Assembly: GCF_024700885.2 (NCBI RefSeq)
Contig: NZ_CP117014.1
Direction: 5' to 3' (one strand)
Length of the DNA: 64,000 bases
Source: Escherichia coli
Lineage (GTDB): Bacteria; Pseudomonadota; Gammaproteobacteria; Enterobacterales; Enterobacteriaceae
Part shown: positions 25,515 to 64,000 of the stretch, in pieces
How the letters are laid out: each line of letters opens with the position of its first letter
Position numbering within the stretch: the first letter of the stretch is position 1
Program-made: the position numbers and the translations under genes
Notes under the pieces: model-generated
What the model was told of the DNA's origin: nothing
Seen by the model: only the letters and a program-made list of their open reading frames with translations
The model's database searches: none

Positions 25515-25518
25515 AATT

Positions 25519-25605: not shown

Positions 25606-25610
25606 TAAAT

Positions 25611-30120: not shown

Positions 30121-33100
30121 TTAGGCCGCATCGGCGATTATTTTACGCAGTTCATCTACCGAGTAACGCGTAGATACCATCCATGCAGGACGGTCAAAGT
30201 TCACATCAGCAACCGGGTTTGCTTCAAAATTCCAGAAACGTCCGCCAATCTTCTTAATCGCGTCTTTGGCGTTCCGTATTGTCGAGGAACCTGGTTGGTC
30301 GGCAATGAGATAAACCGCGCCAACGTCCTCGCTGACGCTCCACCAGCGCCCGCGAACACGCGCCTTAGCGCGAATCGGCTTATCATTAACCACAATGATA
30401 TAGTCATCATTCGCCGCTTCATCAGCTCTGGCTTCAGCCACTGCCGCCTGCTCTTCTCTTTTGCTTTCAGCCTGCTCAAGCCTTTCCGCGATCTCTGATT
30501 CAGTGGCCCCGCCGTTTTTCAGCGATACATAGTCCTGCCACGTTGCCGATTTGAGCGTATCCGGCAACTCATTCACATAGTCGCCGTCTTTCAACTCACG
30601 GGCGCGGCGGGTAGCCATTTCTACCAGGCGATTAACAGAAACAGCATCAGCAAAATCGTCCTTACTAATGTGTTTTTCATCAAATGCATTGATGACAGCC
30701 CCCACCTTAATCCACTGTGCTGCCGGTGATTCCAGGGGGTTATCAGCCTGAACAATGGCGAGTTTCGCTCCATCTACCCCATTATTCGCCAGCTGTTCCA
30801 ATGCCGCCCATCCATCTGCATCACTGAGTGATTTATATTGCTCAAACAATGCATCGCGCCAGGCCACCAGCGCAGAACGTGTTTTTTCGATCTTCGCCTT
30901 AATTTTCGCGATCTTGACCTGATTAAACATCCGTTCAATATCATCGATATTGCTAAAGGCTTTCATCCTGCCCTGGAATAAACGGTATGCCAGCACGGTC
31001 CTCCAGAATGATTCCAGACCTTCTCCGGACGGTTTGCGGAACAAGCTAAGAATATCTTCAGAAGTGACTTTATTAAGCGAACGACCTGACAGACCACGCC
31101 CAGCCATCCAGTTTTCGAACTCATGGGCAACATCATCCATCGTTGCCTGTGCGCCCCATGCCTGCATTCCCTGGGTGTAATCATACCCATACAATGCCTG
31201 GAGGAATCCCTCGCCGTCCACGATATTCAGCGGGTTATCACTGGCTTGTATTTTTGCCACTTCACGCTTCAGCGCCTCGTCGTTGCCATCAGGATATATC
31301 CATCGCTCAGGTGCTATATCCGATGCTCGCCCGATTTTTTGGCCTATCACGCCATCATAGGCCGATGACAGCGCGATCTGACCATCATCTGTGCGATATG
31401 CCCAGTATTTAATAGCTGACCCACCGCCCCATGCATTACCAGGTTTACCAGCAATAACATTCATTACCCCATTGCGAATAGCATCATAGAACTGATCGCG
31501 AGTAAGTATTGTTGATAGCTGGTGGCACTGAACACCACGCGCAGCCGTTGCGCGCGATTCAGCTACCCCCTCTTCAAAAGTTACCGCTTCAATCACAGAG
31601 TCAAACGGCAATGTAACGATTGACCCCGGTGCTCGAGCGTAACGACTTGCTCTATCCAGCCAGGCGATACGGCAGAGGTATTGTGCTTTTTCACCGTCAA
31701 TTTTTTCCACCCGGACAATCGCTGTTGTTTCGCGATCATCAATGACTGCACGGTAATAACTACCTTTATGCAACAGGATATTCTTGTCAGTGCGCATATA
31801 TTCCTGTGGGTTCTGAATAACATCGATACTGATATCCAGCACACCAGACTTAATAGCGCGCTCCACCTCACCACGAGAGCGTTTCATTATGGTATCCGCG
31901 TCTTTTGCCCTGGTGATCGCAAACCGCAGCACCCGCGCACGTTTTCTGTAGCTACTCAACTGCTCAAGCGCGTATTTTTGCCCATTCCTGTTCGTACCCG
32001 CTTTTATCAGGTCGTCAAGATTGCGCTGGTAATACTCTATCTGTTCCATCGCGCTTTTCAGTTCTGTCTCCATCATGCCGATATCTTTTCCGGCGGCGTT
32101 TGCCGCTTTCAGGTAGATATCGAGAGCATTGTTGGCCTCGCGCTGTGCTTTCAGTTTCAGACGTTCTTCACGCTCTTGCGCCTGGCGAGCCATGATTGCG
32201 CGGCGTTCTTCCGGGTTTGCCGCCAGCATAATGGCGCGTTCATCAGCATCATCCGCATCACCATTGGCGATCTCTGACATGTCGGATGTCATCACCATCT
32301 TGATCCAGTCTTTCTTACGTTTCAGCGTATCCAGACGGAAGTCGTCGAATGTGCCTTTGCCACAATAGTAGTGAACATTGACCTTTTCTTGCGGTGAACC
32401 TACGCGCGCACCGCGCCCATTTCGTTGGTCGATACTGGCTGGTGTCCAGGGTAGTGTCAGGTGGTGGATATCGGTTGTCCCGATGTGCAGGTTAATACCT
32501 ACTTCAGCCTTCTTGTTACAGATTATGATGCGCGTGCGACCTTCGTTATAGTCGGCGGCAATACCTTCCATGCCCTCAAGGCCAGCATCATTTTTAGCGG
32601 AGAGATAATCCTCATATTGGGCAAGTTTGCTGTAGTAGGTTTCCCATGCCCCTTCTTTGTATTCACCGTTTTTGTTTGGAGTAGGTTCGGTCGGCTTATT
32701 CACCTTCTTCAGCTTGATGCCACCAGCCTGGCTAACTGTCGTCGCATTGATAATGCCAATCTCCTGCTCCGGCATTTGCAGTGCACTGGCGATAATACGG
32801 CGCAGCTTCTGGTGCTGGGCTTTTTCATCAATAAAGACGATCTGCTTACCGTTCTTCAGACCTTCACGAAGATTTTCGATCAGCGCGGCATACTTCGGCG
32901 GGATGGGGTGCGACACCTGCTGCATATCAATGCCGGCAGCCGCAATGGCCTTCAGTATTTCAGCTTCCAGTTCAATGCTGGCACGTATTTCAACATGCGT
33001 CGGATGTTCACTAAAAGCGGTCTTCACTACCTTGCTGGTACGCGTACTGACCAGCCCGCCAGCGCCGTCTTCCTCGGCCTCATCAACATCATCTGCCACT

Positions 33101-36100
33101 TTACCGCCAGCTACTTTTGGCAAGGCATCAGCAATAGCTTTTACCTGGTCTGCAAGCTCAACGGGGAACTGGAATGTAATCGCACTGGCATACAGATCCG
33201 GGTCTATAGCAACCTTATCCATGTCACGGATGATGGAGAAGATGAAATCATCCGGTTTGTCGTTAGTGATATGCCCGTTTTCATCGACTGTCAGCTCATC
33301 ATTGCGACTTAACTCCTGAGCACGCTTACGAAGCTCTTCATAAGCAGTCTCCTGCTCCCCTGTCATCGGGATCTGCAAGGTGTTCTCGATGATGTCGGGA
33401 ATTTTAACCGTCGCTCCGACATCTGCAGCAGTCTTCAGAGTGGTCCAACGATGGAAAATACCACGCAGGCCGTCAAGGTTCTGGAAGCCCACCAGCCCCT
33501 GCTTCTCTTCCACTTCCCCGGAAATTTTCTGGACCTGAACTGTGGCTGTTTTGCCAAACACACGAACGAAATCATCAGGCGTAATGATGCCCATGCGCAT
33601 CCACTCTTCCTGCGGAATGACAGTAGACAGCATGTTGAAGGCATCAATCGGACTGTTCACCAGCGGTGTTGCCGTCAGCATGACTACACCACGCCCGTTG
33701 TTGCGTTTCATCATGTACGCAGCTTTTACAGCCATGTCGCGGGCCATCTTGGATACTGCCGGGTTAGGCAAATATGCCAGTTGTCCCGCTTCACGCCCGG
33801 CATTAAAGGAGTTGCGGTAGTTATGCCCCTCGTCGGCAATCACGCTATCGAAGTTCATATCCTCAAAGTACGGGATATTCTGCTTCTTCGTTGTACCGGT
33901 ATTCGCGGCCTGATCCTTAATCTTGTTCTTCTTCTGCGCATCACGGTGTTTACCGGACGCCAGGTCAAGACGCCCCATTTCCACAGCATTAAAGACAGCT
34001 TGCTGTGAGTTCTCCTCGATGGTTTTTTCTCGTAGCGGGATAGACGCGAATTGTTCTTTTGTCATGATGACCGTTCGCCAATTTGACGACGGGATCATGT
34101 TCATGCGCTGAACGATAACGGCGCTGGCGGACTCTTTCACAACATTTCTGGTAAGAGGCTGCCCGTTACTGTCGAGGCGTGGTTCGCCATTTTCATCAAG
34201 CACCGGCGCGGTCAGAATATTTCCGCTGTCATCACGAACTTCATCCAAACCGATAAACATCATATTGGCGAAGGCATCAGCACTGTAGAAACTCTGTGCC
34301 TCGTGATACCAGTTCTGATAAACCGCCTTCGGAACAACAATACACGTGCGTTTAGTGCGACCTGTTTCGAAGTTATACGCCTCAAGCGCAAGCGCGGTCG
34401 TGGTTTTACCCAGCCCGGTACCAAATCCCATGATGCCGCGCCCATCTTCTGACAAGCTACGAACTTCTTCATTCTGATAAGTCAGAGGAATGCGCTTTCC
34501 ACTAATCCCTTCCAGGCCAAGCGGTGCGTTAGAGTGCGTGAACGGAATGAAGCCATTGAATGCGTCGTTATAGTCACGGGCTATCTGATCCGCCTGCGGG
34601 TGGGTGCGTAACCAGTCGTTAAAGCTAACTTCCAGTTGAGCAATTTTATCCAAGTACTCGTTAGCGTTCTGCCCACGCGGTTTAACACCGTTCAGGTAGT
34701 TTTCTAACTGGTTCAGGAAGCCGTCTTTATTGTTGGCCTTCTTGAACTCATTCCCGTTTTTGCCGTTTACGGTTCGTAGTTGATAGCCGGTAAATACCCC
34801 GTCCTTACCTTCGTAATCGTCCGGAGATACCAGAATGCCATCGACGACCTTCAGATCAGGTTCAGTGTACTTAAACTCGTCATAGCCCTGCTCTGCCAGG
34901 AACTCTTTTATCAAGCGGCGATCCAGCCAGCGGGCATTCAGATTAACGGTGACTTTATTTAGTGGCGTGAAAATGCGTTTCTCTTCGATTTTCGCCAACT
35001 GACGCTCAAAGTTCGCTTTCTGCTCACCTGTTGACGCATCACGCCAGCCCACCAGCAGTGCTGTTTTGGTTGCAACATCGCCGCTGGTGGCGCGGTCCAT
35101 CGGCAGCAGACAGCCATACCCATCAATAGCGATATCATCAAATTTCGCCAGGTATTCAAGGACCGCGTCGTCGTCCTCTGGCAGTTCACCAGCAAACGCC
35201 TCACGAAAGTCGCCCAGCGTTATAGGATTAAGGGCTACATCACTAAAAAGATGTGCTATCACTTGTTCAGGACGCGTAAAGTCAATACCGGCAGCACCAT
35301 CCGTTACATCAAGTCGCCCTGCCAGAAGGTCAGAAGTGGAACCATCCTGTTTCACATTGCCAGTGAACGTCATCCAGTTTTTAGCGCCAGCTTCAGCAAG
35401 CCCATTCAGCTTAATCGCGTGCGGTGGTCCATACTTCGCAACTTCTGCTGCCGCCAGGCGGGATGCATCTGCCAGTTTGTCATCAACGTTCACCCCCAGG
35501 TTACGCAAATCAAGTGCCTTGTTGATCAACTGACCTATCAGTGCACCGCGCATAACGCGCTCCCTGTCTTTTTCTCGCTGCTTGCCAGCAAAGCGAATCA
35601 TTGCTGCCACTTCATCACTGACAACCGATGGATAGTCGGACGCGATCGCCGATATCTGGTCCCATGACAAAGCCAGAATCCCGTTTGTTGACTGGAACGC
35701 GATCTGCAGATCGCCAAACGTCGAAACACCATATCGACTTACATCAAGCGCGGAGGATTTGGTTGTCGTGTCCTTAACCCATTTCAGACCATCAAACTCA
35801 TGCCAGATACCGCCTACAAGGCGTTTATCGCCCACTTTCGCGCCCTGCCATGCCTGAGTAGTTACGCCGAGCAAATCCCAATTGATGCGACTATCAAAGC
35901 GACGAGATAGCGCGGTTTTCATCGACTCATTGGATACACGACCGTCTTTTTTCACCACCAGGGTATTGCGGAAGCTGGTACGTTCCATGTCGCCGTAAAC
36001 AAATCGCTTCCCTTCGGTTGTAAACCATTTCCCTTTGAGGAAGGTATCCCAAAGGACGTTTGCCGATTTGAGCGTCGAATCATCCGTATCGGGGATCATC

Positions 36101-38755: not shown

Positions 38756-39168
38756 AGTTACGGCCTCACTAACAGGTTTAACAACCTGCCACCCGCTGTC
38801 AAACAGGTGGCAGGACGTGACAGGGTTGACAGACTGGCGTTAGTGAAACCAGCAGGCCGAAGCCTCCCCATCACGCCCCACCATAATTCGGGCGTAACGC
38901 GGTTTACGGACACAAAAATACCGCAATATCGGAAATCTGCGGTTGTCCGCACTAACATTCAGGCTGTCAAACCCGGTCGCAGAATTTGCTACGACGGCAT
39001 GAATATAAGCCTGAAAACATGGAAGATCAACTAAAAATTTCAGCAATGGATGACTTCAGTCGATGATGCAGATCATACATTCCGTTTTAGAAACAGCAAA
39101 TTAATTTTCTAACATAAATAATCGGCCGAGCATTTTCCGATCATTGGGATGTTTTGTAGACACACAGG

Positions 39169-43524: not shown

Positions 43525-43788
43525 ATGATATACTTCGTTGCGAATCACAGCATTGGCAAAGGGCATATTGTGAAACAACTCCCACCAAACACCCCGGAAA
43601 CTATAATTGAAATCCGCCAGCGAATGGGGCTAACGCAAACGGAGTTAGCCCACAAAATGGGGTATCAACTCCGGGCTTGGCAATTCAAAGAAGATAGAAA
43701 TAAACCGAGACGCCTTATGGCTGGTGAATTTGAGTACCTGTTATTGCTTGCTGGAGAGCATCCTGAATTTATTCTTACACCACGCTAA
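43525..43788 (+). CDS. XRE-type HTH regulator (Hxr-like)
   Basis: IRQRMGLTQTELAHKMG helix-turn-helix; same position relative to ddrB as hxr in P1. Confidence 0.5.
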   Translation: MIYFVANHSIGKGHIVKQLPPNTPETIIEIRQRMGLTQTELAHKMGYQLRAWQFKEDRNKPRRLMAGEFEYLLLLAGEHPEFILTPR

Positions 43789-43792
43789 AAAA

Positions 43793-43808
43793 ACCCGCCT
43801 GACGGCGG
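43793..43808. terminator. Bidirectional terminator between convergent hxr-like and 43823 gene
   Basis: AAAAAAACCCGCC-tgac-GGCGGGATT. Confidence 0.55.
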
Positions 43809-43822
43809 GATTATCAATCATA

Positions 43823-44116
43823 TCAATTCACATCAATGTCTTGATATGATTCGCCAGTATCGTCTTCGTCGTCAGGATCTCCTTCCACCTCTGGCCACTC
43901 AACCTCCCAGCCAACAGTTTCCAGGCTCCGCAGAACAAACACCCCATCGGCATGAATGGTATTCACGATCCCCATTGCGGAATTTGAGTTGATAAAGCGT
44001 AAATCTTGCGCAATATTTTCTTCCGAAATATCGCCTTCAAATATACGCAATGTGCCGTCATCAGAGCATTCAACAATCCCTCTAATCCCAGCGGGACTCA
44101 CAATGCTATACTTCAT
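43823..44116 (-). CDS. Small acidic protein (IddB-like position)
   Basis: 97 aa, acidic C-terminus; overlaps the stop region of the upstream 1013-aa gene. Confidence 0.3.
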   Translation of the reverse strand: MKYSIVSPAGIRGIVECSDDGTLRIFEGDISEENIAQDLRFINSNSAMGIVNTIHADGVFVLRSLETVGWEVEWPEVEGDPDDEDDTGESYQDIDVN

Positions 44117-47100
44117 TTTGCAACTCCTTCATACATCCCAAGAAAAATTCCAGCACGCCGTCATTGTTTAATACAGAGTTAGTCGCCTGCTCCGGATCGG
44201 CATACATCTGCAAGGCCATAGAAAAAATCTCAGTCGCCCTGCAATTGCTTAATGCAGGTGGCTTTGATATAAATCTGCCGCTGACAGAACTTACCGTATT
44301 TTCCATATAAATTTTAGACATATATCCATGACTTAGGTCGGTTCGCACCAAATACTCAGCACTGCCACGGCTACCAATATTATGATAAGAAACTTTACCG
44401 TTAGTTTTTGATTTAATGAAGGCTTTGGCCCTCTCCAATAGATGGGGATTTGAATGTTCTATATGGTGACCTATTTCATGCCATAATACACGCTCGTGAT
44501 CACTATTAGCATCAATTGTTATATTCCCATTTCGACTTGCAAAAGCACGAACATTGTTCTTGTGGTTAATATTTTTTAATGTAGATAAAGTCCCTCCTGA
44601 AATAATATAGGCTTTTTCAATCGTCTCGCGAATACTGTATGCTTTACGGGAGAAAGTTTCATTATCGTGACCACTTAACTGCTCTGCTTCATCAGAAATA
44701 GCAATCCCACGACTCCATTCCTTAGACTGGTCATGTGACACATTTGACGATTCAAGAATCATGTCAAATGCGGCTCTGACTTTTTTATGTACTACATTTT
44801 CAAGCGCATTAGGATAGGCTTTTTGTCCACGTGTTAATGAAGCTATTTCATATAGTTCTGCTTGCAAGTCTTCCGGTATGTCCAGATTAAAAACAAGCAT
44901 TTTTTTCAGATCATATCCAATCCCATGATCATTCTGGTGCAAAACCTCAGCAAGGTAGTCAGTGAGTTTTTCCTTATTTGACCTAACTTTATTGATTTGT
45001 TCTATAGTAAAGTCAACACGCTCCTTGATTCCGTAATATGAGGAATGCTCTGCTAATTCCACTATCTCCTTAAGCCTGACAAGTGTCTCAATATACGCAT
45101 CAGCGATCTCCTCTGCCGTTAGTTCAGAGCTAACTCCGACACTGGCTGTTATTTTCCTACCAGCCGCCATAATATCGTCGATATTATGCAAGCTCTTTTT
45201 GAATAACTTCAAAGTATTTTGGATTATGCACACCATCTCTTCTGCGCTTCCAGCTTTATTCATTTCCTTTCTAAATCTTAAAGCTGTTTTCTCTGCAATA
45301 GACGCTGGAGATTTTAAATAGTTACCTAACCAAACAAGACAACCATTGCGCAATTCATCAATACTAAAGTCATCAGGAATATGTTTTGCTGCATTATGTA
45401 AAACACGTATAAATTGTTCAGCGGGCACGCCTTCTTCTGATATGTTGCAAAACGTTTCAATATCACAATCAATATTTCTTTCATCTGCGAGCGAAGGAGC
45501 TTCATCTCCTTTTTCAATCGCGTCACGCAGTGCGTTAGCATAAAAATTGCTGCGTTGATAAGACAATAACATCGTTGTTAACACAGCGTCGCTGTATCCA
45601 TAACGTTTAGCCCACTCCTTAATCTCATTAACGGTGACATTGCGAATATAAAAACCAAGTTCCAAAAATACATTGCGCTTTATTTTTTTTGCGGACTCCT
45701 TAATTTTTTCTGACACCTTCACGATTCGGATCAAGTCCTCCACGCTGGTCGCATCAGCAATTAGCTTTGAAATGTATGGTTCGACATCTCCTGAAACCGA
45801 TTCAAACATGGCGAAATTAAGCCCTTTACCTTCGCCATACTCAGCCTCAATTTCATCAGAAACGGCAGATAAAATGCTACGCAGATCGACATCTCCGCCG
45901 CCGAACATATCGCCTAACGCTTGTTGCTGGTGAATAAGTTCATCGTTAATTTTTTGCGCCAGTTTCTTGAAAGCTGCCCCCATTCGCTTAGCGCTTCGGT
46001 TGTTGGCAACAATAAACAGAGCAAGCGCTTCTGCTTCCGGAGTGCTATCTCCAAACAATCCACGCTGTGCGATCACCTCTTCTACTGCCTGACCGTTATC
46101 TTTTGCTTCACGAACAAGGTTAATTGCTTCCTGTAGCGCGGCAATAGCCTGTTTATCCAGACCATTCAATTGCTCTATACCGTCTACCAGTCCGGTTACC
46201 GTGTCATGGTGAACATCACCTGAAAGCGACTGCATTTGCGCAAAATCGCTGGCTGCCGTATTTAATGCGGTAAGAATGTTACGCATTTCCGGATCTGGCT
46301 CTTCCGCCACCAGCCGAACAAGCCTTTCATCCTTGTACGCTTTGGCAAAAATTGCATTCTGGATGCGGTCGATAAGTTGTTTCGTTGGACGCCCATCGGC
46401 AGTAAGCAAACCTGCCGTCGCCGTATCACCTATTTCGCGCAAAAACGCACGAATAAACGCATCATTGGACCGCGCCAGTAGATTTCCATCATCTGAAGGA
46501 TTAAATAGCGCCATGACGCTCTCAGTGAGAAATTGCGCATCCGCATACGCTTTTTCACTTGCAGCCATCTCTTGCAGATCGCTGATGTTTGAATCGCGGG
46601 CAAATTGTGCGCGGTCTACATCTGTGAGTCTTTCTCGCACCAATACGGGCATAGACATTTGTGAAATGTCGTCAGGATTCAGACCAAACTCTTTTGCATG
46701 ATCGATCAGGTACTGGCGATATTCATCCGCCTGCCCTTGCTCATAGGCACGCCAGATACCCATGCTCCTTCCGTTGCCGGATTCAACAACGTTGTCCGGA
46801 CCAACTATCGGCGCTCCGTGGCTGCTCATGCCGGAATCCGTTAATTGTGCCGGGCGTAAATTGGAGGCAATACGGTTAACCTGGAGTTTGCTTGATAGCC
46901 GTGTACGGTCACGTGGCTGGAGTTCTTCCGGGAAGGCCGGATTAATCGTACCGTCAAGGTTGTTCGAAATGATCAGACTGCTGGCATCAACGACCTTAAA
47001 AGCCGTCTTTACCTCTGCCCCTTTACTGGTGACTACGTAACTACTGCGCCCCTGGCGTGTTTCTCGCCTCTCTAATGAAGAAACCAGCGCAATAACACTG

Positions 47101-47147
47101 TTAATGTCTGCTGCTTCGGATAGCGCGGAAGTAACTGACTTGTTCAA
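44106..47147 (-). CDS. Large virion/anti-restriction-cluster protein (DdrB-like position) with HExxH motif
   Basis: 1013 aa; LWHEIGHHIEH zinc-metallopeptidase-like motif near C-terminus; position in the dar operon. Confidence 0.45.
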   Translation of the reverse strand: MNKSVTSALSEAADINSVIALVSSLERRETRQGRSSYVVTSKGAEVKTAFKVVDASSLIISNNLDGTINPAFPEELQPRDRTRLSSKLQVNRIASNLRPAQLTDSGMSSHGAPIVGPDNVVESGNGRSMGIWRAYEQGQADEYRQYLIDHAKEFGLNPDDISQMSMPVLVRERLTDVDRAQFARDSNISDLQEMAASEKAYADAQFLTESVMALFNPSDDGNLLARSNDAFIRAFLREIGDTATAGLLTADGRPTKQLIDRIQNAIFAKAYKDERLVRLVAEEPDPEMRNILTALNTAASDFAQMQSLSGDVHHDTVTGLVDGIEQLNGLDKQAIAALQEAINLVREAKDNGQAVEEVIAQRGLFGDSTPEAEALALFIVANNRSAKRMGAAFKKLAQKINDELIHQQQALGDMFGGGDVDLRSILSAVSDEIEAEYGEGKGLNFAMFESVSGDVEPYISKLIADATSVEDLIRIVKVSEKIKESAKKIKRNVFLELGFYIRNVTVNEIKEWAKRYGYSDAVLTTMLLSYQRSNFYANALRDAIEKGDEAPSLADERNIDCDIETFCNISEEGVPAEQFIRVLHNAAKHIPDDFSIDELRNGCLVWLGNYLKSPASIAEKTALRFRKEMNKAGSAEEMVCIIQNTLKLFKKSLHNIDDIMAAGRKITASVGVSSELTAEEIADAYIETLVRLKEIVELAEHSSYYGIKERVDFTIEQINKVRSNKEKLTDYLAEVLHQNDHGIGYDLKKMLVFNLDIPEDLQAELYEIASLTRGQKAYPNALENVVHKKVRAAFDMILESSNVSHDQSKEWSRGIAISDEAEQLSGHDNETFSRKAYSIRETIEKAYIISGGTLSTLKNINHKNNVRAFASRNGNITIDANSDHERVLWHEIGHHIEHSNPHLLERAKAFIKSKTNGKVSYHNIGSRGSAEYLVRTDLSHGYMSKIYMENTVSSVSGRFISKPPALSNCRATEIFSMALQMYADPEQATNSVLNNDGVLEFFLGCMKELQNEV

Positions 47148-47240
47148 AATACACTCCCCTTACATAGAAAGCAGGAAGTGTAAAAAGTGTGTGATTTATG
47201 GACTTACAGGAAAGTGAAAGGGGCATTTCAGCCCCTTTGA

Positions 47241-47609
47241 TTACCCTGCATAACCGTTGGCTTTCACCCAGCTTATGGTCTGCTCTTTTGCCTGTTCCAA
47301 CGTAAGGAACTCGCCAACATAGTTTGAGATCCCACGCAGCGCATCAATAAATTCCATTTGTGTGGACTTTGTGAACACACCGCCCAGGAAGTCAGTCACT
47401 ATCTTAGGAACTTCATCTACAACAGGATCAGTCTGTTGTTGCGGTTCCGCTGCCGGTTGCGCGGCAGTCCCCAAGCCCAATTTCAGCATCACATCAACAA
47501 TCTGCTTACCAATGGTGACGCGTTGCAATACTGGCGCCGTTTTCTGCGCCTGCATTAGATCTGATAGCTCTTTACCTAATTTCAGGCGGTCTAAAACAGA
47601 GATGGTCAT
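47241..47609 (-). CDS. Small protein (DdrA-like position)
   Basis: 122 aa; located between DarA-like and DdrB-like genes. Confidence 0.35.
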   Translation of the reverse strand: MTISVLDRLKLGKELSDLMQAQKTAPVLQRVTIGKQIVDVMLKLGLGTAAQPAAEPQQQTDPVVDEVPKIVTDFLGGVFTKSTQMEFIDALRGISNYVGEFLTLEQAKEQTISWVKANGYAG

Positions 47610-49534
47610 TAAGCACCTCCCTGCTGAATTTCAGCCAGAATGTTGATCAGGTAGTCAACTGCTGCACCAACAGTGGCTTCGTTCTCGTCGTATCGACCTG
47701 CGCTGATTAGAGCGTTTGCTGCTTCCTGCACATGATCAAGTTCAGCACTGATGACCGTCAGATCGCGGGATGTAAACTGCTCCGGCACGGATTTCAGGTA
47801 CTCCAGTGCTTTATCTGCCTCCTGATCAGCTTCACTTGCTGATTCACCAGCTTCTTCTGGCTCCGGCTCCTGTTCTGGTGCTGGTTGTGGTTGTGATTCC
47901 GGCTCAACCACATGCTCTGCTTTTACTTCGCTTGAATGATTTTGAAGGGCGTTATACACGTCCATAATGAAAAGGTTCTCCCCATCACCAAGTGGATACG
48001 CCACGTTTGGAAACGCTTTGCGGAAAAGAATTTTCACTTGCGCCTTGAATGTTTTCAGGTCACTGCCAAACAGGTCTACATAGCCATCAATATGTTTCGA
48101 CATGCTGGACACAACCAATTGGCCTGCAAAATCTTTCAGCTCATCTTCATCAGGAAGATAGAGCAACTCGTACTGGCTGACTTCTTCATCTGTCAGTTTA
48201 CGGTCATACGTAATGATACCGTGACGAGCATATTCGTAATACTGATCAGCCTGGTCAGGACGATCAAGCACGGCTTTATTTCCATCCGGCACAGCACCAA
48301 CACCAGCCGGGCGAGATTGAAGTGCATAGTGGTATTTACCTACATCCTGGCTCTCTGGTTGTGATACTGGGTTCGTCTCGGGGTCTGTCTGTGGTGGTTC
48401 GGGGTCTTCCTGCTGGCCTGGTAACACATCAACTTTATATTTATCTGCGTTATGCTCTCGGTAGGCTTTAAGTAATTTGGTTGCAGCATCTGCCAAACTG
48501 CCTCCTTTGACAGCACTGGCATCAATACTGAATTTACCTTCAGGTGCTACTATCGTAACGAAATTGTCACTGCCGGACGTGATATAATTAACTTCAGCGC
48601 CATTATCCAGCACTGTTTTTCCGTCAATGGCAAGATTATGTTTTACATGTCGCAGCTGGTCACTAAACGCTCGTTCCTTCGTTTTTTCACCTTTAGCAGA
48701 CAACAATTTATCGCGTTTTTCTTGTAATTCCTCGTTGATGGCTTTCTGGGCATCAAGTTTTTTTTGCATCTCCGTAAGAGCAGCACGCTTTTCAGTCAGC
48801 CCACGTTGCGCAACGTCCACCTGATCAATCATTATTGACCGTTCTTCTGCCAGTTTATCTGCTTCATTGAGATAACTCTCAATATCTGCCTTCATTTTGT
48901 CCTGGCGCTCTTTTGCTTTCTTAAATTTTTCGCTGTTACGCTCAATCAAATTAGATAGCGCCTGGCATACCTGGCTTAAAGAAACATCTCTCCCACCAAT
49001 CGGGGCGACAACGTGAGTTACGTTACGCTTATTAAGTAAAAACTGAAATGCAACAAGCTCGTCGTTACTCTTTATTTTTGCCCCGTCAGCTGTTGGAGAG
49101 TGGAAAATTATGCTTGTACTCTGCCCGTCAGTAAGTGGTATCTGCGCGGTCAAAACAGGGATATTAGCTACCCGACGTACACGACCGATAATCGCACCAC
49201 CAATACAATTACGTCCATTTTCATCGGTCCCGGCTTCATCAGTCCCTGCCATAATATTCGTACCATTCAGGCCACGATTCAGCGCACGGACGAAAGCTCG
49301 CATTGTTTGGGCTAACCGAATTCTGGTTGTAGTTATGGACTCAAACATAGCTTCGTCAGACACAACCAGAATTTCATTGCCCATATAGGCAAGCTCAATA
49401 TCTTCTAAGGTCGCCGCCTCAAAAATCAGGTCATCTTCGCTTAATTCTTCTGAAGACCAGCGACTTGGCACATAGCCGGGGATCGTATCAGCAAAAGTAG
49501 ACTGAATATTAATTCGTAAAGGATTGTTAATCAT
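47609..49534 (-). CDS. DarA-like internal head/anti-restriction protein
   Basis: About 641 aa from ATG 49534 (GGAGG RBS); P1 DarA about 639 aa as recalled; coiled-coil centre, acidic Pro/Glu-rich linker. Confidence 0.45.
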   Translation of the reverse strand: MINNPLRINIQSTFADTIPGYVPSRWSSEELSEDDLIFEAATLEDIELAYMGNEILVVSDEAMFESITTTRIRLAQTMRAFVRALNRGLNGTNIMAGTDEAGTDENGRNCIGGAIIGRVRRVANIPVLTAQIPLTDGQSTSIIFHSPTADGAKIKSNDELVAFQFLLNKRNVTHVVAPIGGRDVSLSQVCQALSNLIERNSEKFKKAKERQDKMKADIESYLNEADKLAEERSIMIDQVDVAQRGLTEKRAALTEMQKKLDAQKAINEELQEKRDKLLSAKGEKTKERAFSDQLRHVKHNLAIDGKTVLDNGAEVNYITSGSDNFVTIVAPEGKFSIDASAVKGGSLADAATKLLKAYREHNADKYKVDVLPGQQEDPEPPQTDPETNPVSQPESQDVGKYHYALQSRPAGVGAVPDGNKAVLDRPDQADQYYEYARHGIITYDRKLTDEEVSQYELLYLPDEDELKDFAGQLVVSSMSKHIDGYVDLFGSDLKTFKAQVKILFRKAFPNVAYPLGDGENLFIMDVYNALQNHSSEVKAEHVVEPESQPQPAPEQEPEPEEAGESASEADQEADKALEYLKSVPEQFTSRDLTVISAELDHVQEAANALISAGRYDENEATVGAAVDYLINILAEIQQGGA

Positions 49535-56277: not shown

Positions 56278-57123
56278 TTAAACAGATTGAAGGTGGTAAT
56301 CCAAAGGCCACGCATCGAGTGGGGTTACATCAAGATGTAATTGCTTTTCTGCCGTTCGGTTCGGTATGGCATTAAGAGAAATATTGTCTGCCTGGCAGGA
56401 GGTATCACTACGGGATAGCATATCAGCCATACTCTCAGTAACATAAACACCTTCAATTACCGAAACATCCGTAGACAGGTAATTTAATATTTCTGCCACT
56501 TCAGGGAATACAGCACTAAGCCGAAACGAGACGCCATCAAAAACAATATGCAATGGCAACAAAGGGGCTATTACTGTTTCGAAGTCAGATAACAATTTCT
56601 GCACAGCGGCTTCTTTATCCTGCTCTCCATATGAGCGATATAGCTTGTTCTGATCAACAACGACCAGCCCCCTTGATGTCAGGAAGAGCTCACCGAATTG
56701 AGCCTGTGCCGTAGGTATTTCTATTTCGGTCGCAAAATATGAACCATAGGGGTGTTTTTCTATATTTACAGGTGCATACAGCGGTTCCCAACTAACAGGA
56801 ATACAACCGAATTCACGCCAGAATGTCTGCTCAATAGGCAAGATAGTACCTTTAAAGTGCACTTCATCTAAACGCTGCGCCAGAAGCATTGGCCTACGGG
56901 CATTATCTTTTTCAGTGATAACGAAAAAACGCCCGTATTCAGCAATGCGGGCATCCATATCCTCACTGTCCATAGTGAAGAAGGATTTTCTGTTACTTAT
57001 TCTTGTTAATATTGGTTCTACTGCCTCATTCCAGACATCCTGTAAAGCGTCTATAAATGCACTCCAGAGATGTGAATCCTGTTTTACTTTAGTTAATCGT
57101 TCCTTAAGCCAATTATCTTTCAT
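56278..57123 (-). CDS. Baseplate protein (gene 16 position)
   Basis: 281 aa in the baseplate cluster. Confidence 0.4.
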   Translation of the reverse strand: MKDNWLKERLTKVKQDSHLWSAFIDALQDVWNEAVEPILTRISNRKSFFTMDSEDMDARIAEYGRFFVITEKDNARRPMLLAQRLDEVHFKGTILPIEQTFWREFGCIPVSWEPLYAPVNIEKHPYGSYFATEIEIPTAQAQFGELFLTSRGLVVVDQNKLYRSYGEQDKEAAVQKLLSDFETVIAPLLPLHIVFDGVSFRLSAVFPEVAEILNYLSTDVSVIEGVYVTESMADMLSRSDTSCQADNISLNAIPNRTAEKQLHLDVTPLDAWPLDYHLQSV

Positions 57124-57133
57124 GCTAACCTCA

Positions 57134-58564
57134 TTACGGGTAAGAAATGCTGAACGTTGAAGATTTTACGTTAAGATAAATGAAGTCATTAAAGTAAACA
57201 GCATCTTTCATATTTTGTATTGTTATGTCGTAAGACAGAAACATATCCAGAGACTCTATTACTCGCCAAATATCTTTAACTTTTACCTGTGCATAACATT
57301 GCTGGGAATCATCATCACTCTGTAGTAATAAACTGAATGATGACGAATCACGGCCAAAATTATCTTCCAACGCTGCTTTAATAGCATTTTGAGCATCGTC
57401 TATCAGAACATTTTTACGTGCAATACCTATAAATTTTATAGTAAATGGCTGTTCATTTGTATCTACATACTCGAACCGCTTGTTCAACTCATTTGGAACA
57501 TTCTCTAGAGCTTTCAGTATTTCTGATTTTAGCTGAGCCTGGCTTACACCCGGCTTATGTCCGCAAAAGAAAATTTTGTTGATGTTTCGAACGTCAAACC
57601 CAGTTATTTTCTCTTGTAACGCTTCGCCCCAAACGTTCAACCATGAAGTTCCATGAACAACATTCTGAATGAATTGGCGATAATCACCGCCCCATACCAC
57701 TTGTTCATCGTATGCAACATAATACTGAGCACGATTTCGAGTTTCTTCTGTAGTTTCCATACCACTACCACCGGTAATGATCGAATCAGTTTTAAACTCT
57801 AGTGACTCCGCATATTGAGCGATATTTCCAGCCGGTTCTAACTTTTGTCCTTCAGCCAAAGTATAGTCGCCAAGGCTAGCCATAACATCGATTCGAACCT
57901 GACAGCCTGCTGGAGGCATCATACCCATAGAACCATCACCAAACTTGACTCCAAGTTGTTCTGTAGGTTTATATGCCAATGAATAGTGCTTACTCTTGTC
58001 TCTGGACATTCTAAATAATGGGTTATATGTCCATTTTTCTTCTACTCCATCTGTAATAACATAAACATCCAGGCTAGAGACTTCTTTTGTTAACTCTCTG
58101 GAAAGCAACAATGTCAGAAATAAAGTTTCCTTCTCAATATCAAATGTAATGCTAACAGCTTCATGCTGTTTAGTTTCTACGCCAGAAACAGTTCCTCCAG
58201 CAGGAATTACAACACTGTTAATAATTGCCAAAGGTGTTTGGTCATTGGCAAGCAATTCAGCCCCGGCTGGTAACGTAATATCCCGATCAGTTTTATTGGT
58301 TATAGACGTTGTTCCGTATGAAGCACTAACAAATCGCCCTACGTAGCTACGGTCTTCAGCAACCGCTAAAATACTTGAGCGACGCGTTGCCGTTGAAATA
58401 AGTCCCTCAGTGAGGCCGCGGCTTGCAAATGTACGGGCAATATAAATAAGCTGCGCTCCGAATATAGCGTGCATCTGCACAAACTGACTATTTACAAATC
58501 GTGACCACCATGTGTTTTCGTTTAACTTGGCGTTAAATTTGTCCAGTAATTCTGTAATCGTCAC
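57134..58564 (-). CDS. Baseplate protein (BplA / gpJ-like)
   Basis: 476 aa; position and size. Confidence 0.45.
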   Translation of the reverse strand: MTITELLDKFNAKLNENTWWSRFVNSQFVQMHAIFGAQLIYIARTFASRGLTEGLISTATRRSSILAVAEDRSYVGRFVSASYGTTSITNKTDRDITLPAGAELLANDQTPLAIINSVVIPAGGTVSGVETKQHEAVSITFDIEKETLFLTLLLSRELTKEVSSLDVYVITDGVEEKWTYNPLFRMSRDKSKHYSLAYKPTEQLGVKFGDGSMGMMPPAGCQVRIDVMASLGDYTLAEGQKLEPAGNIAQYAESLEFKTDSIITGGSGMETTEETRNRAQYYVAYDEQVVWGGDYRQFIQNVVHGTSWLNVWGEALQEKITGFDVRNINKIFFCGHKPGVSQAQLKSEILKALENVPNELNKRFEYVDTNEQPFTIKFIGIARKNVLIDDAQNAIKAALEDNFGRDSSSFSLLLQSDDDSQQCYAQVKVKDIWRVIESLDMFLSYDITIQNMKDAVYFNDFIYLNVKSSTFSISYP

Positions 58565-58935
58565 GCGCCCACCCCACTTGATTTCTGCATAACAATATCC
58601 ATGCTCCCACCTTTCGCATAAAAACTAATTAATAAAGAATCTTCAGAAATTGATGTGCAACGAATCCCCTGCACATCCAAACCTGGCAAGTCTTGTCGTA
58701 GTTTTTTCATCATTCTCCCTTCAATAGCCACTTCAACTATGTGCGAAGTTTCAGAGCCGAATGGTTCATGCTTAAATTCTTCCATTGGACTCCCCCAAGA
58801 GGGTAAACCATAAACACTCCCTTCAGGGGTTCGTAGCCACTCGTCAAGTCGGGCCATCCATGCTGCGGTACTTCCTTCTGCAATAATGACACCGCTCTCA
58901 TTCGTTTGAAGTCTTGCGTCTATTTCGTAAAGCAT
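58561..58935 (-). CDS. Small baseplate protein (PmgA position)
   Basis: 124 aa; 4-bp overlap with the downstream gene. Confidence 0.4.
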   Translation of the reverse strand: MLYEIDARLQTNESGVIIAEGSTAAWMARLDEWLRTPEGSVYGLPSWGSPMEEFKHEPFGSETSHIVEVAIEGRMMKKLRQDLPGLDVQGIRCTSISEDSLLISFYAKGGSMDIVMQKSSGVGA

Positions 58936-58940
58936 CAGTA

Positions 58941-61900
58941 TTAATCCTCAAGCAGAGCATCCAGCGACTGGTCATTAATAGTTGTGCTCGCACGTGGTCG
59001 CGGCTGCGGCTGCGATGTTTTGACAACATTATCCGGATCGCCTTTTGTATTGTTCTTGTTCACATTCAGCAGATCGTTCAGGATAGAGCAGATGTTATCC
59101 AGCGCCTTCAACATAGCAGGATCGTTATTTATAGTGTCAGTAGTTAATGGTTGTCTTATTCCGCTTCGTGCGAGATCGGTTACAGTAGGGAGTTGTGGCG
59201 GCATAGCAAGAAAAGGTTCTTGCACAGCTGAAGCAGAGCCAAATATGGCGTTATTGGCACCAGTTGCTATTCCCCTAATGCTATTAGCGGTTTGTTGAAT
59301 CCCCCCATTCAGCCAGTCTCCAACATTTCTTGTTAATGGGCTAATAGCTCGCGCAATCGCACTATTCTGCCCAGTAGACTGCATTACAAGATCGTTCAAT
59401 ATCCCTGTACTATCAATCCCCCCAACAAGTCGTGAAAGGTTATCGCCAACGGCAGGAATTACTGCGGTTCCTGTCTGTTTAAGCCCTGACACCGTGGAAT
59501 CAAATAGCGAACCAAAGAAGCTCTTATCCTCACCTGTAACCACCTTGTAGCCGTTGTCATAAATCTGCACATCACTTGGTGCCGTGATAGTTCGTTTTCC
59601 AGAGGTAACTACTGGCGCAGCTCCCGCCATAGCCTGGCTGATTGCTAGAGCCTGCTCCTGCTGTGGAGTTTTCGGAGTAGAAGGGGATACTTGATCTCCC
59701 GGAAGTAGATCAATGATTTCTGTATCGTGATTAACAGTGCGTTTTTGTTGTATGGCTGTTGCGATATCAGCCACTTGAGAAGCTTTTTTAAATCCAAAAG
59801 ATTTACCGGTTAAGCCGGATATCTTTTCAGTAAGAGCCTGATCCATTCCTTTCGCTTTTTCGGAAAGCGAAGATATAGAACCAAACGAAGTAGCCAACGC
59901 AAAATCCTTTACCAGGTCCAGACTTGTTCCAGCAAGGCTGGTAGCCGCGCCGCCAAATAAATTACTTGCACCACTGATTCCGCTTTCATTTATTGCGATT
60001 AACCGCTCAAGCAAACTCGATGGAGAGCCGGTATTAACATCAGCGTTCTCTGGATTAATCGGTTGTGGTTGGTTACCTGTTTTTTGTGGCTTTTTGACTG
60101 CCTGGGCATGTTGTGCAACCTCAATTGGCTGTTGTGTTGCTGTCGGAACGGCATTCAAAACTGGTTGAGCTGGAGATTTTCCATTAGCATATTTTACCTT
60201 GCGACCAACACTATATTGCGAATCGCGGGCAATTAGCTGACCACCATTTTCTTTCTGAATTTTATTAATCCGCGCCAAGGTTTCGTCAGAGAATTGCCCC
60301 TCCCATCGACCAGTGTTTGTGTTAAATGCTCCAAGTGCGTTCTTAATGAACTCATTATTAACTGCCGGATTTCCGCCTTCTTTCGTCGCAATTGCACGAA
60401 CTAATTGCGTCATAACCTCTGGTTTGCTGACATCTATTTTTTCATTAGGCGATACACCAAGATATTTACTGACGTTATCAATATATTGGTTAGTATTGTT
60501 CTCATTTGGCGGTGCCCATTTTGAAATGATGCTGGATACCGTCTGTAACTTCTGATATCCCGCTGCGGCACTGGTGCCGTTGTAATAGCTGGAAACCTGG
60601 TTTGCCAGTGCCCTGATCCCTTCTTCAGGTGTGTTAAATCGCGCAAAACGTTGTTCACCTTTTGCATTTGGCGATTCCAGCGTCGCCCCTTCCTGGTTGG
60701 CAAAAACAAGATTGCCGAGATTATTATTTCGGTAATTGCGGTTTTTAGCGTTGCTGCCGCCAATATTCAGATCCGCTGCAATGGTGTTGTTGGCAGGTGC
60801 ACTAAATTCAGTTGGAGAAGTATACCCGTGCTCACCAACTCCATCCTCGCCATTACGCCCACCTTGTAATTGTTCACCTAGAGAATGAATCGCATCGACA
60901 GTTTTTTTGGTGCCGTCTTCAACAGCTTTTTTTACTTGTTTCGTGTTTTCGTCAGTGGATAAAAATGTATCCTTAAGGCTACCAAAAACAGATTTGGTGA
61001 TATCTACCGCGCCGTTAACACCACGAGCAATATCTCCGGTATCAAAATTCTGAAGTTTTTCACCTGCTCTTTCAAATCCTAGCGCAGAAATTCCTTTCCC
61101 TATCAAGTTCGTTGCGCCCGACACCAAGCCCCCCATATCGAGCACATTAGCTGTTGCGTAAGCCGTTTTTTGCTGTTCGGATACAGCATTATCGTCACTT
61201 AATCCAAAGGCTGCCTTTTGCGCCTCTGTATCTGTGTAACCATCTATGGCGTCATATCCAGCCATTGCCAGCGAACCGATGATAGGGACCGCTCTTGCCG
61301 CTGTGGATGCTGCTGATTTAACACCTATTTTTGCAGCACTTTTGAGGGCTACAGATTCAGTTTTTTTCTTTGCAATGGCTTCGCCGGTTTTAATGGTGGC
61401 ATCTTCAGCCACAACACCAGCTGACTTCACGGCCTTAGCAGTATTTTTTGTTTCCTTTGCAATCCCCTTTGATGTATCGCTGATAGTGCTTACATCTTTG
61501 GGTTTGCTGATCTTATTTTTAACTACTTTTGCTGCTCCGACACCAGTGCCAGCCGCAGCGCTACCGGCAGCAACTTTTTCGCCAGCGGAGAGTGCTTTTT
61601 TCCCAAGATTGCGTCCTTTCCTTTTCGATTTGTTCCGTTTATTTTTTCCCGTCTGATCACCAATATTGATTTTATTTCTTCTGCTTGCTCGATTTTTCCA
61701 GAGATCACTTAAGCCGAACTTATTTCCAGAAGACACTGATTTCCGAAGCTTAACTATCTCGTCAGAAACATTTTCCAGACCATCAATTATTTCGTTGTCA
61801 TTGGTCTGAAGGATTTTGGTTTGCTCTTCTACTGCTTGTGCGGATTTTGTCTCAACAGCGTTATTGAACGCTTTTGCAGATGTTGCTTTTTGAGAATTCA

Positions 61901-62810
61901 CCGCCGCCGGATAAGTAATTACTGGTGATATTGCTTTCGAGGTTGATGTTTCTTTTTTCCCCTTTTCTACCCATTCTTTAAGAGATTCTGCTTTACCTGT
62001 GATCTCTTTAGTTATATCGTACATGCCACGAGCCGCCATCCAGAACGGCCCACCAGCACCGACACCAGCTGCATTTGTTAAAGACTCTTCACTGGAAGAC
62101 CGATTGCCATCTACCCCCATAATGGAACCTAGCTTTCTGAGAAAGCCAGCTTGTAATTTTGCGTCGGCTTTACGTGCGTTCTGCAATTCTTTTTTTCTGG
62201 CTACATCCTCATTGCTTTTTTGGGATACAAAACGTCCATTACTATCCCGCAGCGGGCCTTTTAGACTTTGGGGGGATTGTGGTTCAAGAGGGGCTGAATT
62301 AGCAGCTACCGGTATAAAACCGTCCGATTTTCGGATGGTCTGACGTGATTGCACGGAGCGAACACTTTCTGGTGTGTTCGTTGCAACGATAGAGCGGTCC
62401 ACGGTTTGGTTTATCGGTGCCCTCTCCTTTTTAGCAGGGAGACGTTTTTTATATGGGTTAGTTTGGACATCTCTAACGCTATCAGATGTACTTTGCTCGT
62501 ACTCTTTACGCCTGCGTGATAGTCTGTTGCTAACTCTGCCTTGCCTTTCGTCCTGTTGAGTTATGGTGCTTGCCCCAGAAAGAATGGCGTCTTTTACCTC
62601 AGCAAGAGCTTTAAGTTCGTTTGTGCTCGCTTCCTGAATAGCGTCAATTATTGCGATACGGTCTTTATTCTCTTTCAAAATAACCTCTCTTTTACCAGCG
62701 CGATCAACGTTTCCCGGCTTGAGCTTTGTATTTTTCTTCCAGGGCTTTTGACATATGGAGTGCTCGCCATTGCGGTAATTGTTCAGCGTCACTAACGGGC
62801 TGATATCCAT
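58941..62810 (-). CDS. Tail tape-measure/injection protein (Sit-like)
   Basis: 1289 aa, Lys/Ala/Gly-rich with repetitive low-complexity stretches; position upstream of baseplate genes. Confidence 0.55.
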   Translation of the reverse strand: MDISPLVTLNNYRNGEHSICQKPWKKNTKLKPGNVDRAGKREVILKENKDRIAIIDAIQEASTNELKALAEVKDAILSGASTITQQDERQGRVSNRLSRRRKEYEQSTSDSVRDVQTNPYKKRLPAKKERAPINQTVDRSIVATNTPESVRSVQSRQTIRKSDGFIPVAANSAPLEPQSPQSLKGPLRDSNGRFVSQKSNEDVARKKELQNARKADAKLQAGFLRKLGSIMGVDGNRSSSEESLTNAAGVGAGGPFWMAARGMYDITKEITGKAESLKEWVEKGKKETSTSKAISPVITYPAAVNSQKATSAKAFNNAVETKSAQAVEEQTKILQTNDNEIIDGLENVSDEIVKLRKSVSSGNKFGLSDLWKNRASRRNKINIGDQTGKNKRNKSKRKGRNLGKKALSAGEKVAAGSAAAGTGVGAAKVVKNKISKPKDVSTISDTSKGIAKETKNTAKAVKSAGVVAEDATIKTGEAIAKKKTESVALKSAAKIGVKSAASTAARAVPIIGSLAMAGYDAIDGYTDTEAQKAAFGLSDDNAVSEQQKTAYATANVLDMGGLVSGATNLIGKGISALGFERAGEKLQNFDTGDIARGVNGAVDITKSVFGSLKDTFLSTDENTKQVKKAVEDGTKKTVDAIHSLGEQLQGGRNGEDGVGEHGYTSPTEFSAPANNTIAADLNIGGSNAKNRNYRNNNLGNLVFANQEGATLESPNAKGEQRFARFNTPEEGIRALANQVSSYYNGTSAAAGYQKLQTVSSIISKWAPPNENNTNQYIDNVSKYLGVSPNEKIDVSKPEVMTQLVRAIATKEGGNPAVNNEFIKNALGAFNTNTGRWEGQFSDETLARINKIQKENGGQLIARDSQYSVGRKVKYANGKSPAQPVLNAVPTATQQPIEVAQHAQAVKKPQKTGNQPQPINPENADVNTGSPSSLLERLIAINESGISGASNLFGGAATSLAGTSLDLVKDFALATSFGSISSLSEKAKGMDQALTEKISGLTGKSFGFKKASQVADIATAIQQKRTVNHDTEIIDLLPGDQVSPSTPKTPQQEQALAISQAMAGAAPVVTSGKRTITAPSDVQIYDNGYKVVTGEDKSFFGSLFDSTVSGLKQTGTAVIPAVGDNLSRLVGGIDSTGILNDLVMQSTGQNSAIARAISPLTRNVGDWLNGGIQQTANSIRGIATGANNAIFGSASAVQEPFLAMPPQLPTVTDLARSGIRQPLTTDTINNDPAMLKALDNICSILNDLLNVNKNNTKGDPDNVVKTSQPQPRPRASTTINDQSLDALLED

Positions 62811-62824
62811 ACAGAGTCAGGTTG

Positions 62825-63646
62825 TTAATAATGGTTAGCCATCCATTCAGATCTAATTGATGGGATAAACTCTCTATTGAGAAAGGGGACGTACAGTGTG
62901 GTTGTCACATCTGCACCCTCCTTAGCGTTTTTGCAATGTTGCGGAGGCAGGATCAGTCGGCTTGAGCCTCTCTCAATAGACATTTTCAGGCCGTGACGTA
63001 GGTCTTTTTGCATAAGCTGTATGCGAGCCACAAGCGGAGTAAATTCGGTTTCAAGCGCCATGCTTTCAATGATGTCAAAGCGTCGGTTAGCGGCCTGCGT
63101 GAAGTCCTCCGGATCGTCTTCAAGCGCCGTGCATAAAGCGAGTTCAGCAATTCGCATCCGTGCTACGCCAGCACTGTATTCGGGACTTTTCATATCAGGA
63201 AGTGACGCTCGCATTCGTTCAAGGAGTTCCGCACCTTTCCCGGTTAATGGTTTAAGTATCCAGTCAGTTGGTACTCCATTTACTGGTACGTTGGTTTTCA
63301 CGTAAGGAGGTACAGTGAGTATTTCTACTGTTTGGGCCAGGTCGCTCAGGTTAATATCTGCATGATGCGTATTACCGCAGTGACTGCACTCATAGGAGTA
63401 GGTCATTACTGCATCGGGGCGCGAATTAACAAATATCCACCAAAGGGCAGTTCTGCGATCCTGGACTGTCCAGTAAGCACTGTCGTTAATTTCACCATCC
63501 TGCATAGAGTTAAGGTACTCTGTAGTAGTTGCCTCATCTTCTGCCGGGTTCAGGTCAGAATATTTCAGCGCATCCTTCACGGTAGGGGCGTGGAACTGAA
63601 TTTCTGTCTCAGGACGGGAAGGCAATGGGAATTTTGGAATGTTCAA
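62825..63646 (-). CDS. Hypothetical tail-morphogenesis protein (PmgB position)
   Basis: 273 aa with CSHCG motif; directly upstream of sit-like gene. Confidence 0.35.
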   Translation of the reverse strand: MNIPKFPLPSRPETEIQFHAPTVKDALKYSDLNPAEDEATTTEYLNSMQDGEINDSAYWTVQDRRTALWWIFVNSRPDAVMTYSYECSHCGNTHHADINLSDLAQTVEILTVPPYVKTNVPVNGVPTDWILKPLTGKGAELLERMRASLPDMKSPEYSAGVARMRIAELALCTALEDDPEDFTQAANRRFDIIESMALETEFTPLVARIQLMQKDLRHGLKMSIERGSSRLILPPQHCKNAKEGADVTTTLYVPFLNREFIPSIRSEWMANHY

Positions 63647-63732
63647 GTATTCCTCCGATAAGCAGATGTCTGTTTATTCGTTGGAGGATAGGTAGTGTGT
63701 GAAATTGGGTGGAGCTTTGTAATTCTTCTTTT

Positions 63733-63941
63733 TTATCCACAGGATAGATCCAATATATAGATCCTGATTAGATCCATATAGTACCAAATAGATCCCGTAG
63801 CTCTTCAGGCCGCGCCACATAAGGCTTTAACCACTATTCAGATGTGTGCTGGAGGGAGAACGATGTGTGCTGACGGGAAAAATATGTGTGCTGGAGGGTT
63901 TTACATGTGTGCTGACGGGATGTAGGATGTGTGCTGACGGG
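63733..63941. other. Plasmid-type replication origin (oriR-like): DnaA box, GATC heptamer cluster, five iterons
   Basis: TTATCCACA at 63733-63741; AGATCC repeats at 63746-63795; five 21-bp-spaced iterons (G/C/T)ATGTGTGCTG(G/A)(A/C)GGG at 63841, 63862, 63883, 63904, 63926. Confidence 0.75.
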
Positions 63942-64000
63942 AAAAAAAGCCGGATATCCACTGTCGTAAACTTTATTCACAACATGACGGTAACTTATTG

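Follow-up and report, generated by a model that had tools for sequence, protein, structure and literature searches.

A P1-type oriR/incC origin, predicted to belong to a complete iteron-controlled replicon, in the pmgB-tub slot of a D6-like phage-plasmid

Among the closest described counterparts of the origin reported here are the replicons of the phage-plasmids P1 and P7. In P1, DnaA boxes lie at both ends of oriR, and the annotation runs in the order DnaA site, five Dam sites, five RepA iterons, the promoter PrepA within the iterons, repA and incA. P1-like phage-plasmids have been split into P1-g1, the group of P1, and P1-g2, the group of D6 (Pfeifer et al. 2021, PMC7969092); rep and par are co-localised in P1-g1, and 14 persistent genes separate them in P1-g2 (PMC7969092). 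Replicase switching between IncY and p0111 has already been documented within P1-g1 (PMC7969092, PMC11165635), including 17 inferred switches in Salmonella (PMC11165635). In D6 the gene order is pmgB, repA (orf42, pfam01051) and tub, and the same order is found in ptetA.

The window, by which we mean the whole 64-kb stretch of Escherichia coli DNA that was analysed, ends in a compact series of replication-origin elements that begins behind a tail gene. The features of this region are as follows, with the source of each assignment in brackets.

62825-63646, minus strand: pmgB homologue of 273 aa with a TTG start (ORF list; annotated CDS in plasmid pB2C_96).
63647-63702, minus strand: pmgB leader with a GGAGG ribosome-binding site (backbone sequence common to D6 and all D6-like plasmids).
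63703-63732, plus strand: AT-rich linker of 30 bp, 33% GC (alignments, GC count).
63733-63741, plus strand: left DnaA box TTATCCACA (scripted motif location; P1 DnaA site annotation).
63745-63795, plus strand: AT-rich region, 36% GC, presumed to serve strand opening and SeqA sequestration (aligned with the P1/P7 annotations "Dam methylation site 1-5").
63745, 63758, 63769 and 63789, plus strand: four TAGATCC heptamers, each with a Dam GATC (script).
63746, 63759, 63770 and 63790, plus strand: AGATCC within these four heptamers (script).
63806-63818, plus strand: GC-rich spacer CAGGCCGCGCCAC (alignments).
63841-63859, plus strand: incC iteron 1, GATGTGTGCTGGAGGGAGA (aligns with P1 iteron copy 14).
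63862-63880, plus strand: incC iteron 2, GATGTGTGCTGACGGGAAA (script).
63883-63901, plus strand: incC iteron 3, TATGTGTGCTGGAGGGTTT (script).
63904-63922, plus strand: incC iteron 4, CATGTGTGCTGACGGGATG (script).
63926-63944, plus strand: incC iteron 5, GATGTGTGCTGACGGGAAA (the preceding 22-bp step is the same as in P1).
63900-63928, plus strand: putative sigma-70-like repA promoter, TTTACA-17-TAGGAT, inside iterons 3-5 (consensus scan).
63954-63981, plus strand: right DnaA-box region (script and alignment with P1).
63982-64000, plus strand: last part of the repA leader, directly followed by the repA ATG (pB2C_96 record position 32533).

The five iterons share the core ATGTGTGCTGnnGGG on the plus strand, starting at 63842, 63863, 63884, 63905 and 63927, and the resulting steps of 21, 21, 21 and 22 bp are those of iterons 14-10 of incC in the P1 annotation. 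DnaA boxes bound the origin on both sides, with TTATCCACA at 63733 and TTATTCACA at 63973. Within the right-hand region, ATATCCACT (63954-63962) carries two mismatches and TTATTCACA (63973-63981) is a perfect TTATNCACA; their P1 counterparts are TTATCACCA and CTATCCACA, respectively. Direct reading and a script thus both recovered the DnaA box, the four AGATCC sites and the five phased iterons that the first-pass annotation had reported. The pattern is more than chance, because the iteron core is unique to this site, TAGATCC is scarce and the GATC cluster is the densest of the window. Specifically, no copy of the core with up to two mismatches was found outside the five on either strand of the 64 kb, where a single three-mismatch match lies elsewhere, at 27430; TAGATCC has only two further copies, both strands counted; and the four GATC sites fall within 50 bp (four TAGATCC in 51 bp).

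Three small minus-strand open reading frames in this region (63674-63820, 63827-63961 and 63834-63980) were considered as genes and rejected, as they span the repeats and are unannotated in every relative. An Rfam scan of 63000-64000 returned no RNA family, and the pmgB leader motif is not reused elsewhere in the window. Similarly, no P1-type late promoter (-22 box AAGTKACTW plus -10) was found near 63647-63732 with a motif compiled from four late promoters of the P1 annotation, which has only two one-mismatch matches window-wide. The replicon splits the pmgC-tub and pmgB-sit parts of an operon that is transcribed in P1 from LPsit.

The likeness to P1 extends beyond the order of motifs. In a sensitive BLASTN comparison of 63650-64000 with phage records, the annotated oriR/incC of P7 and P1 matched at 78-79% nucleotide identity and Cronobacter phage JK004 at 80%, and a three-way alignment with the P1 and P7 oriR is unbroken between the DnaA box and the start of repA, which bears out the earlier assignment of the region to a P1-type oriR/incC. 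All 13 bases of the spacer CAGGCCGCGCCAC are identical in P1 oriR (13/13), and JK004 and the p0111-type origins retain only a shorter CCGC..CC core of it, with substitutions. The putative promoter at 63900-63928 occupies the aligned position of the annotated P1 PrepA, and its burial within iterons 3-5 implies that RepA may repress repA. By contrast with the region to its right, the 30-bp linker (63703-63732) has no counterpart in alignments with P1, P7, JK004 or D6, and it was otherwise seen only in the p0111-like cassette of the D6-like plasmid pNCYU-26-73-5.

The genes that would complete such a replicon lie outside the window, and their presence was read from identical or near-identical public plasmids. 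Plasmid pB2C_96 (NZ_CP035876.1) is 100% identical to the window over 63300-64000 and 99.9% identical over 62000-64000. The first-pass annotation had expected repA to start just beyond the window and had named the search for a repA-like gene downstream as its test; in pB2C_96 an 861-bp repA is present, and its ATG is the base directly after window position 64000. The 286-aa product is 83.7% identical to the RepA of P1 and P7, 92.6% identical to that of JK004 and 94.8% identical to that of the Salmonella P1-like plasmid p21-SA00706-0, and it matches Pfam Rep3_N at 28.6 bits against a cutoff of 22.4 bits. Directly 3' of repA follow seven incA iterons, three forward and four reverse (pB2C_96 locus L001, 11863-12084). 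Neither annotation nor typing gives pB2C_96 a Rep initiator other than this P1-type RepA.

That the window stops one base before the repA ATG might raise the suspicion that the junction between the tail genes and oriR was created by assembly or circularisation. In some records (CP057047, CP057052 and CP057059) the circle has been opened so that repA stands at position 1, so the window edge is probably the end of a record, and linearisation of this kind probably explains why the window ends where it does. The junction itself has next to no probability of being an artefact, given that pmgB, oriR, repA, incA and tub are contiguous in the independently assembled NZ_CP035876, NZ_CP066033, NZ_AP018804, NZ_CP067430 and NZ_CP044179 and that both flanks are colinear with D6.

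Taken together, we consider it highly probable that 63733-64000 is the oriR/incC half of a complete P1-type iteron-controlled theta replicon (oriR, repA and incA) that serves as the maintenance replicon of a D6-like phage-plasmid. This reading is supported by the anatomy and homology of the region, by the repA and incA that follow it in public plasmids of identical or almost identical sequence, by the conservation of the slot and by the position of the breakpoints.

The backbone next to the origin belongs to the D6 lineage. The pmgB homologue is the first gene of a pmgB-sit-pmgA-bplA tail/baseplate block that reads away from the origin; its product has 39.7% amino acid identity to P1 PmgB and a weak match to Pfam T4_baseplate (23.7 bits, under the 24.5-bit cutoff), and the D6 homologue is annotated as "similar to P1 gene pmgB." Over 57000-63702, nucleotide identity to phage D6 is 96% (96.2%), and identity to the corresponding P1 proteins is only 40-57% (R, 16, BplA, PmgA, Sit, PmgB, Tub, PmgC, BplB, PmgG, 21 and 22). 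Judged by these identities, the window element is a D6-like (P1-g2) phage-plasmid and not P1. One carrier of the same P1-type cassette, NZ_CP066033, has been used as a P1g2 representative (PMC10879196).

Further features of the element were recorded elsewhere in the window. The sit homologue, a tape-measure/transglycosylase gene, occupies 58941-62810 on the minus strand (pB2C_96 locus L001, 5867-9811); it is mosaic among carriers, since plasmids that are nearly identical elsewhere agree at 99% in some of its segments and at only 83% in others, and its annotated length varies from 3651 to 4170 bp. Rfam models identify a C4 antisense RNA (68.8 bits; 38803-38888, minus strand) and an a1/b1 target element (55.2 bits; 38956-39008, minus strand), and the pair makes up an immunity region (immI) of the P1 type. 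On the minus strand at 24393-25687 there is a cluster of five tRNA genes (Met-CAT, Ser-TGA, Thr-TGT, Tyr-GTA and Arg-TCT).

The identity of the backbone bears directly on the position of the origin. The first-pass annotation had noted that the P1 origin is far from sit and pmgB and had taken its placement here as a rearrangement. The first part stands: P1, P7, JK004 and p21-SA00706-0 have oriR-repA-incA flanked by upfA and parA-parB-23, at a distance from sit and pmgB, so the position does differ from that in P1. The second part does not, as the backbone is D6-like and the slot is the standard one of that lineage. D6, ptetA and about 110 PLSDB plasmids with the D6-type cassette all have their replicon in this pmgB|tub slot, which makes the arrangement seen here the ordinary one for the lineage. 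It is therefore very unlikely that we are looking at a rearranged P1 genome whose origin moved from the upfA/parA interval to a site beside sit and pmgB. Such a move is also at odds with the occupation of the pmgB|tub slot by a replicon in every D6-like plasmid examined, with the separation of rep and par already described for P1-g2 (PMC7969092), and with the absence of any upfA or par flank travelling with the cassette. In pB2C_96, parM/parR are far from repA. They lie at 43788-48234 of the NZ_CP035876.1 record, together with a second AAA-ATPase pair and a full-length glnS (glutamine-tRNA ligase), and this segment takes the place of the rep-par region of P1.

What is unusual is not the position of the slot but its content, a P1/IncY-like cassette that replaces the usual D6-type Rep_3 replicon. 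The left breakpoint is at 63702|63703, where homology to D6 and ptetA ends, and this homology resumes at position 12070 of pB2C_96 locus L001, within the last incA iteron. Between the two breakpoints there are 1366 bp of P1-type oriR-repA-incA in these plasmids, versus 1442 bp in D6. In the pB2C_96 record, the stretch that begins at window 63703 and takes in repA and incA spans 32235-33627. No D6-type iterons were found in the window or in the cassette. The P1-type cassette occurs in this slot in only eight PLSDB plasmids, all at least 99.6% identical, and in 6 of 5426 complete E. coli genomes, versus 83 with a D6-like pmgB flank. The same junction recurs in these independent records, which come from Vietnam, Germany and Japan and from cattle, human and Salmonella sources.

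The extent of the homology defines the unit that occupies the slot. BLAST homology to P1-g1 replicons runs exactly from the DnaA box at 63733 to incA, and because it is bounded by these two elements, the unit is a minimal replicon with its control locus, without an upfA or par flank. A recent transfer from a sequenced P1-like donor was considered and rejected, since even the nearest relative of RepA is only 77% identical at the nucleotide level. With nucleotide identities to the nearest relatives of only 77% and 74%, the cassette is an old, selectively maintained lineage. Moreover, RepA is 84-95% identical to P1-g1 proteins versus 40-57% for the backbone, a disparity that argues for exchange between the P1 subgroups and not for vertical co-divergence.

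Comparison of the carriers with one another suggests that exchange may also occur within the D6-like group. The cassette is 99.6-99.9% identical among carriers, against differences of up to 7% in adjoining parts of the backbone. For instance, between pB2C_96 and NZ_AP018804 the cassette is 99.6% identical, pmgB 96.0%, bplB-pmgG 93.3% and the sheath gene 97.0%. Because the cassette is less diverged than its flanks, these values suggest either movement of the cassette from one diverged D6-like backbone to another or mosaicism of the backbones.

The same data bear on whether the origin is in use at all, or is a decaying relic or decoy in a plasmid driven by another replicon. Some observations would fit a relic: P1-type iteron fossils that look non-functional are present at the right junction of D6-type plasmids, and P1 has more DnaA boxes and GATC sites than this origin. 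Yet the core and the P1 phasing are kept in all five iterons, repA is full-length with its protein 99.7-100% conserved in 8/8 carriers, and the cassette keeps its 99.6-99.9% identity between carriers whose flanks are up to 7% apart. RepA is 94.8% identical to its nearest relative at the amino acid level against 77% at the nucleotide level, pointing to strong purifying selection, and the carriers have no other recorded Rep gene or replicon type and no D6-type iterons. A relic is accordingly highly improbable, and a maintained P1-type replicon remains the preferred reading.

The fossils themselves are informative about the history of the slot. D6, ptetA and pNCYU-26-73-5 have two P1-type iterons directly beside tub. 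In D6 (NC_050154, about 46923-46966; locus L007, 14031-14074) these are a degenerate copy in forward orientation, GTGGGTGCTGACGGGAAA, and, after a 7-nt gap, a reverse copy with a perfect core, CCCTCCAGCACACAT. Their position is that of the last incA iteron in the window-type plasmids, at the right cassette breakpoint. The simplest reading would be that the D6-type replicon took over from an earlier occupant of the slot, of P1 type.

A third cassette has been found in the same slot of at least one plasmid. In pNCYU-26-73-5 (CP042620.1; locus L008, 3914-5700) the slot holds a p0111-like cassette with a Rep that shares 85% identity with the p0111 reference (that of pO111_2, NC_013370) and 41% with the P1-type RepA. 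On its right side, D6-type incA iterons are followed by the P1-type fossils, giving a three-layer mosaic. The slot is thus exchange-prone, as marked by the iteron fossils and the third cassette. The module at 63733-63818 is about 77-79% conserved in p0111-type and in Klebsiella/Escherichia phage-plasmids, despite quite different iterons and Reps. An origin-opening module therefore appears to be shared across Rep specificities, and it is a plausible substrate for cassette swaps. A farther-reaching proposal is that pmgB|tub is a dedicated replicon-exchange site, in which D6-type, IncY-like and p0111-like cassettes are swapped by recombination in the opening module and the iterons, the fossils record the order with the P1-type first, and the D6 fossil pair acts as a decoy against an incoming competitor, holding IncY RepA by titration or handcuffing. 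We regard this proposal as unlikely.

How the P1-type replicon would work can be outlined by homology with P1, from the oriR literature of which the following steps are drawn. RepA monomers would bind the five iterons, which the 21-bp phasing would place on one face of the helix, and host DnaA would bind the flanking DnaA boxes. Jointly, RepA and DnaA would open the adjacent AT-rich TAGATCC region. The GATC sites would need Dam methylation and would be sequestered when hemimethylated, so that re-initiation would be delayed. RepA bound to iterons 3-5 would repress its own promoter (PrepA), and the seven incA iterons 3' of repA would keep the copy number low through titration and handcuffing. 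The cassette is transcribed away from pmgB, in the standard slot of the lineage between pmgB and tub. Activity, dependence on Dam, DnaA and RepA, autoregulation and incompatibility specificity are all predictions by analogy with P1.

These results have consequences for annotation and for the study of phage-plasmids. repA, incA and the replicon type can be assigned with confidence, and the window should be labelled as D6-like and not as P1. The locus provides a breakpoint-resolved case of replicon-cassette exchange between two P1 subgroups, at non-homologous genome positions, and it bears on how phage-plasmids escape from incompatibility or impose it. A resulting prediction is that carriers may be incompatible with P1/IncY elements even though typing tools call no IncY. 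The type of origin is ordinary and well understood; what is new is a P1/IncY-like cassette in the D6 slot, a modest example of replicon swapping that does not overturn current understanding.

Set beside the known systems, the cassette combines features of several. D6 (NC_050154) and other D6-like (P1-g2) elements share with it a backbone of 96-99% nucleotide identity, the slot between pmgB (orf41) and tub (orf43), the orientation of repA and the breakpoints. They differ in the replicon: the D6 Rep_3 initiator (orf42) has 251 aa and no significant BLASTP similarity to the P1-type RepA (best E-value 0.2), and its iterons are of the type GGTGTAAGATTTGCCCTCAA, unlike the P1-type iterons here.

The p0111-type replicons have in common with the window origin an opening module of DnaA box, GATC heptamers and GC spacer; they differ in their iterons, ACATTGACTATACACGAT, and in a 294-aa Rep only 41% identical to the P1-type RepA. 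pNCYU-26-73-5 has the left junction, the 30-bp linker and the DnaA box in common with the window; beyond them, it continues as a p0111 origin. p21-SA00706-0 (NZ_CP146848) and JK004 have the same origin architecture and iteron core as the cassette, to which they are 77% and 74% identical at the nucleotide level, respectively, and their replicons stand in the P1 context, upfA | oriR-repA-incA | parA parB 23.

With P1 and P7 (IncY), the cassette shares the order of DnaA box, AT-rich GATC heptamers, CAGGCCGCGCCAC spacer and five direct 19-bp iterons, the 21/21/21/22-bp steps with an embedded promoter, and an incA array in two orientations. It has one left DnaA box versus two in tandem in P1, four GATC heptamers versus five, and seven incA iterons versus nine; at the nucleotide level it is only about 71-80% identical to any replicon of P1-g1 (about 71-79% for P1/P7); and, unlike in P1, it is not adjacent to parABS, sitting between pmgB and tub, inverted relative to the tail genes. 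MOB-suite assigns its carriers to rep_cluster_2221, true P1-like plasmids to IncY and D6-type plasmids to rep_cluster_1704. The modest identity and the fewer boxes and heptamers are points against the replicon reading, and because of the rep_cluster_2221 typing, functional equivalence to P1 and incompatibility with it are not guaranteed. Nevertheless, since the iteron core consensus ATGTGTGCTGnnGGGA is common to the cassette, P1, P7 and JK004, cross-reaction with IncY replicons seems rather likely.
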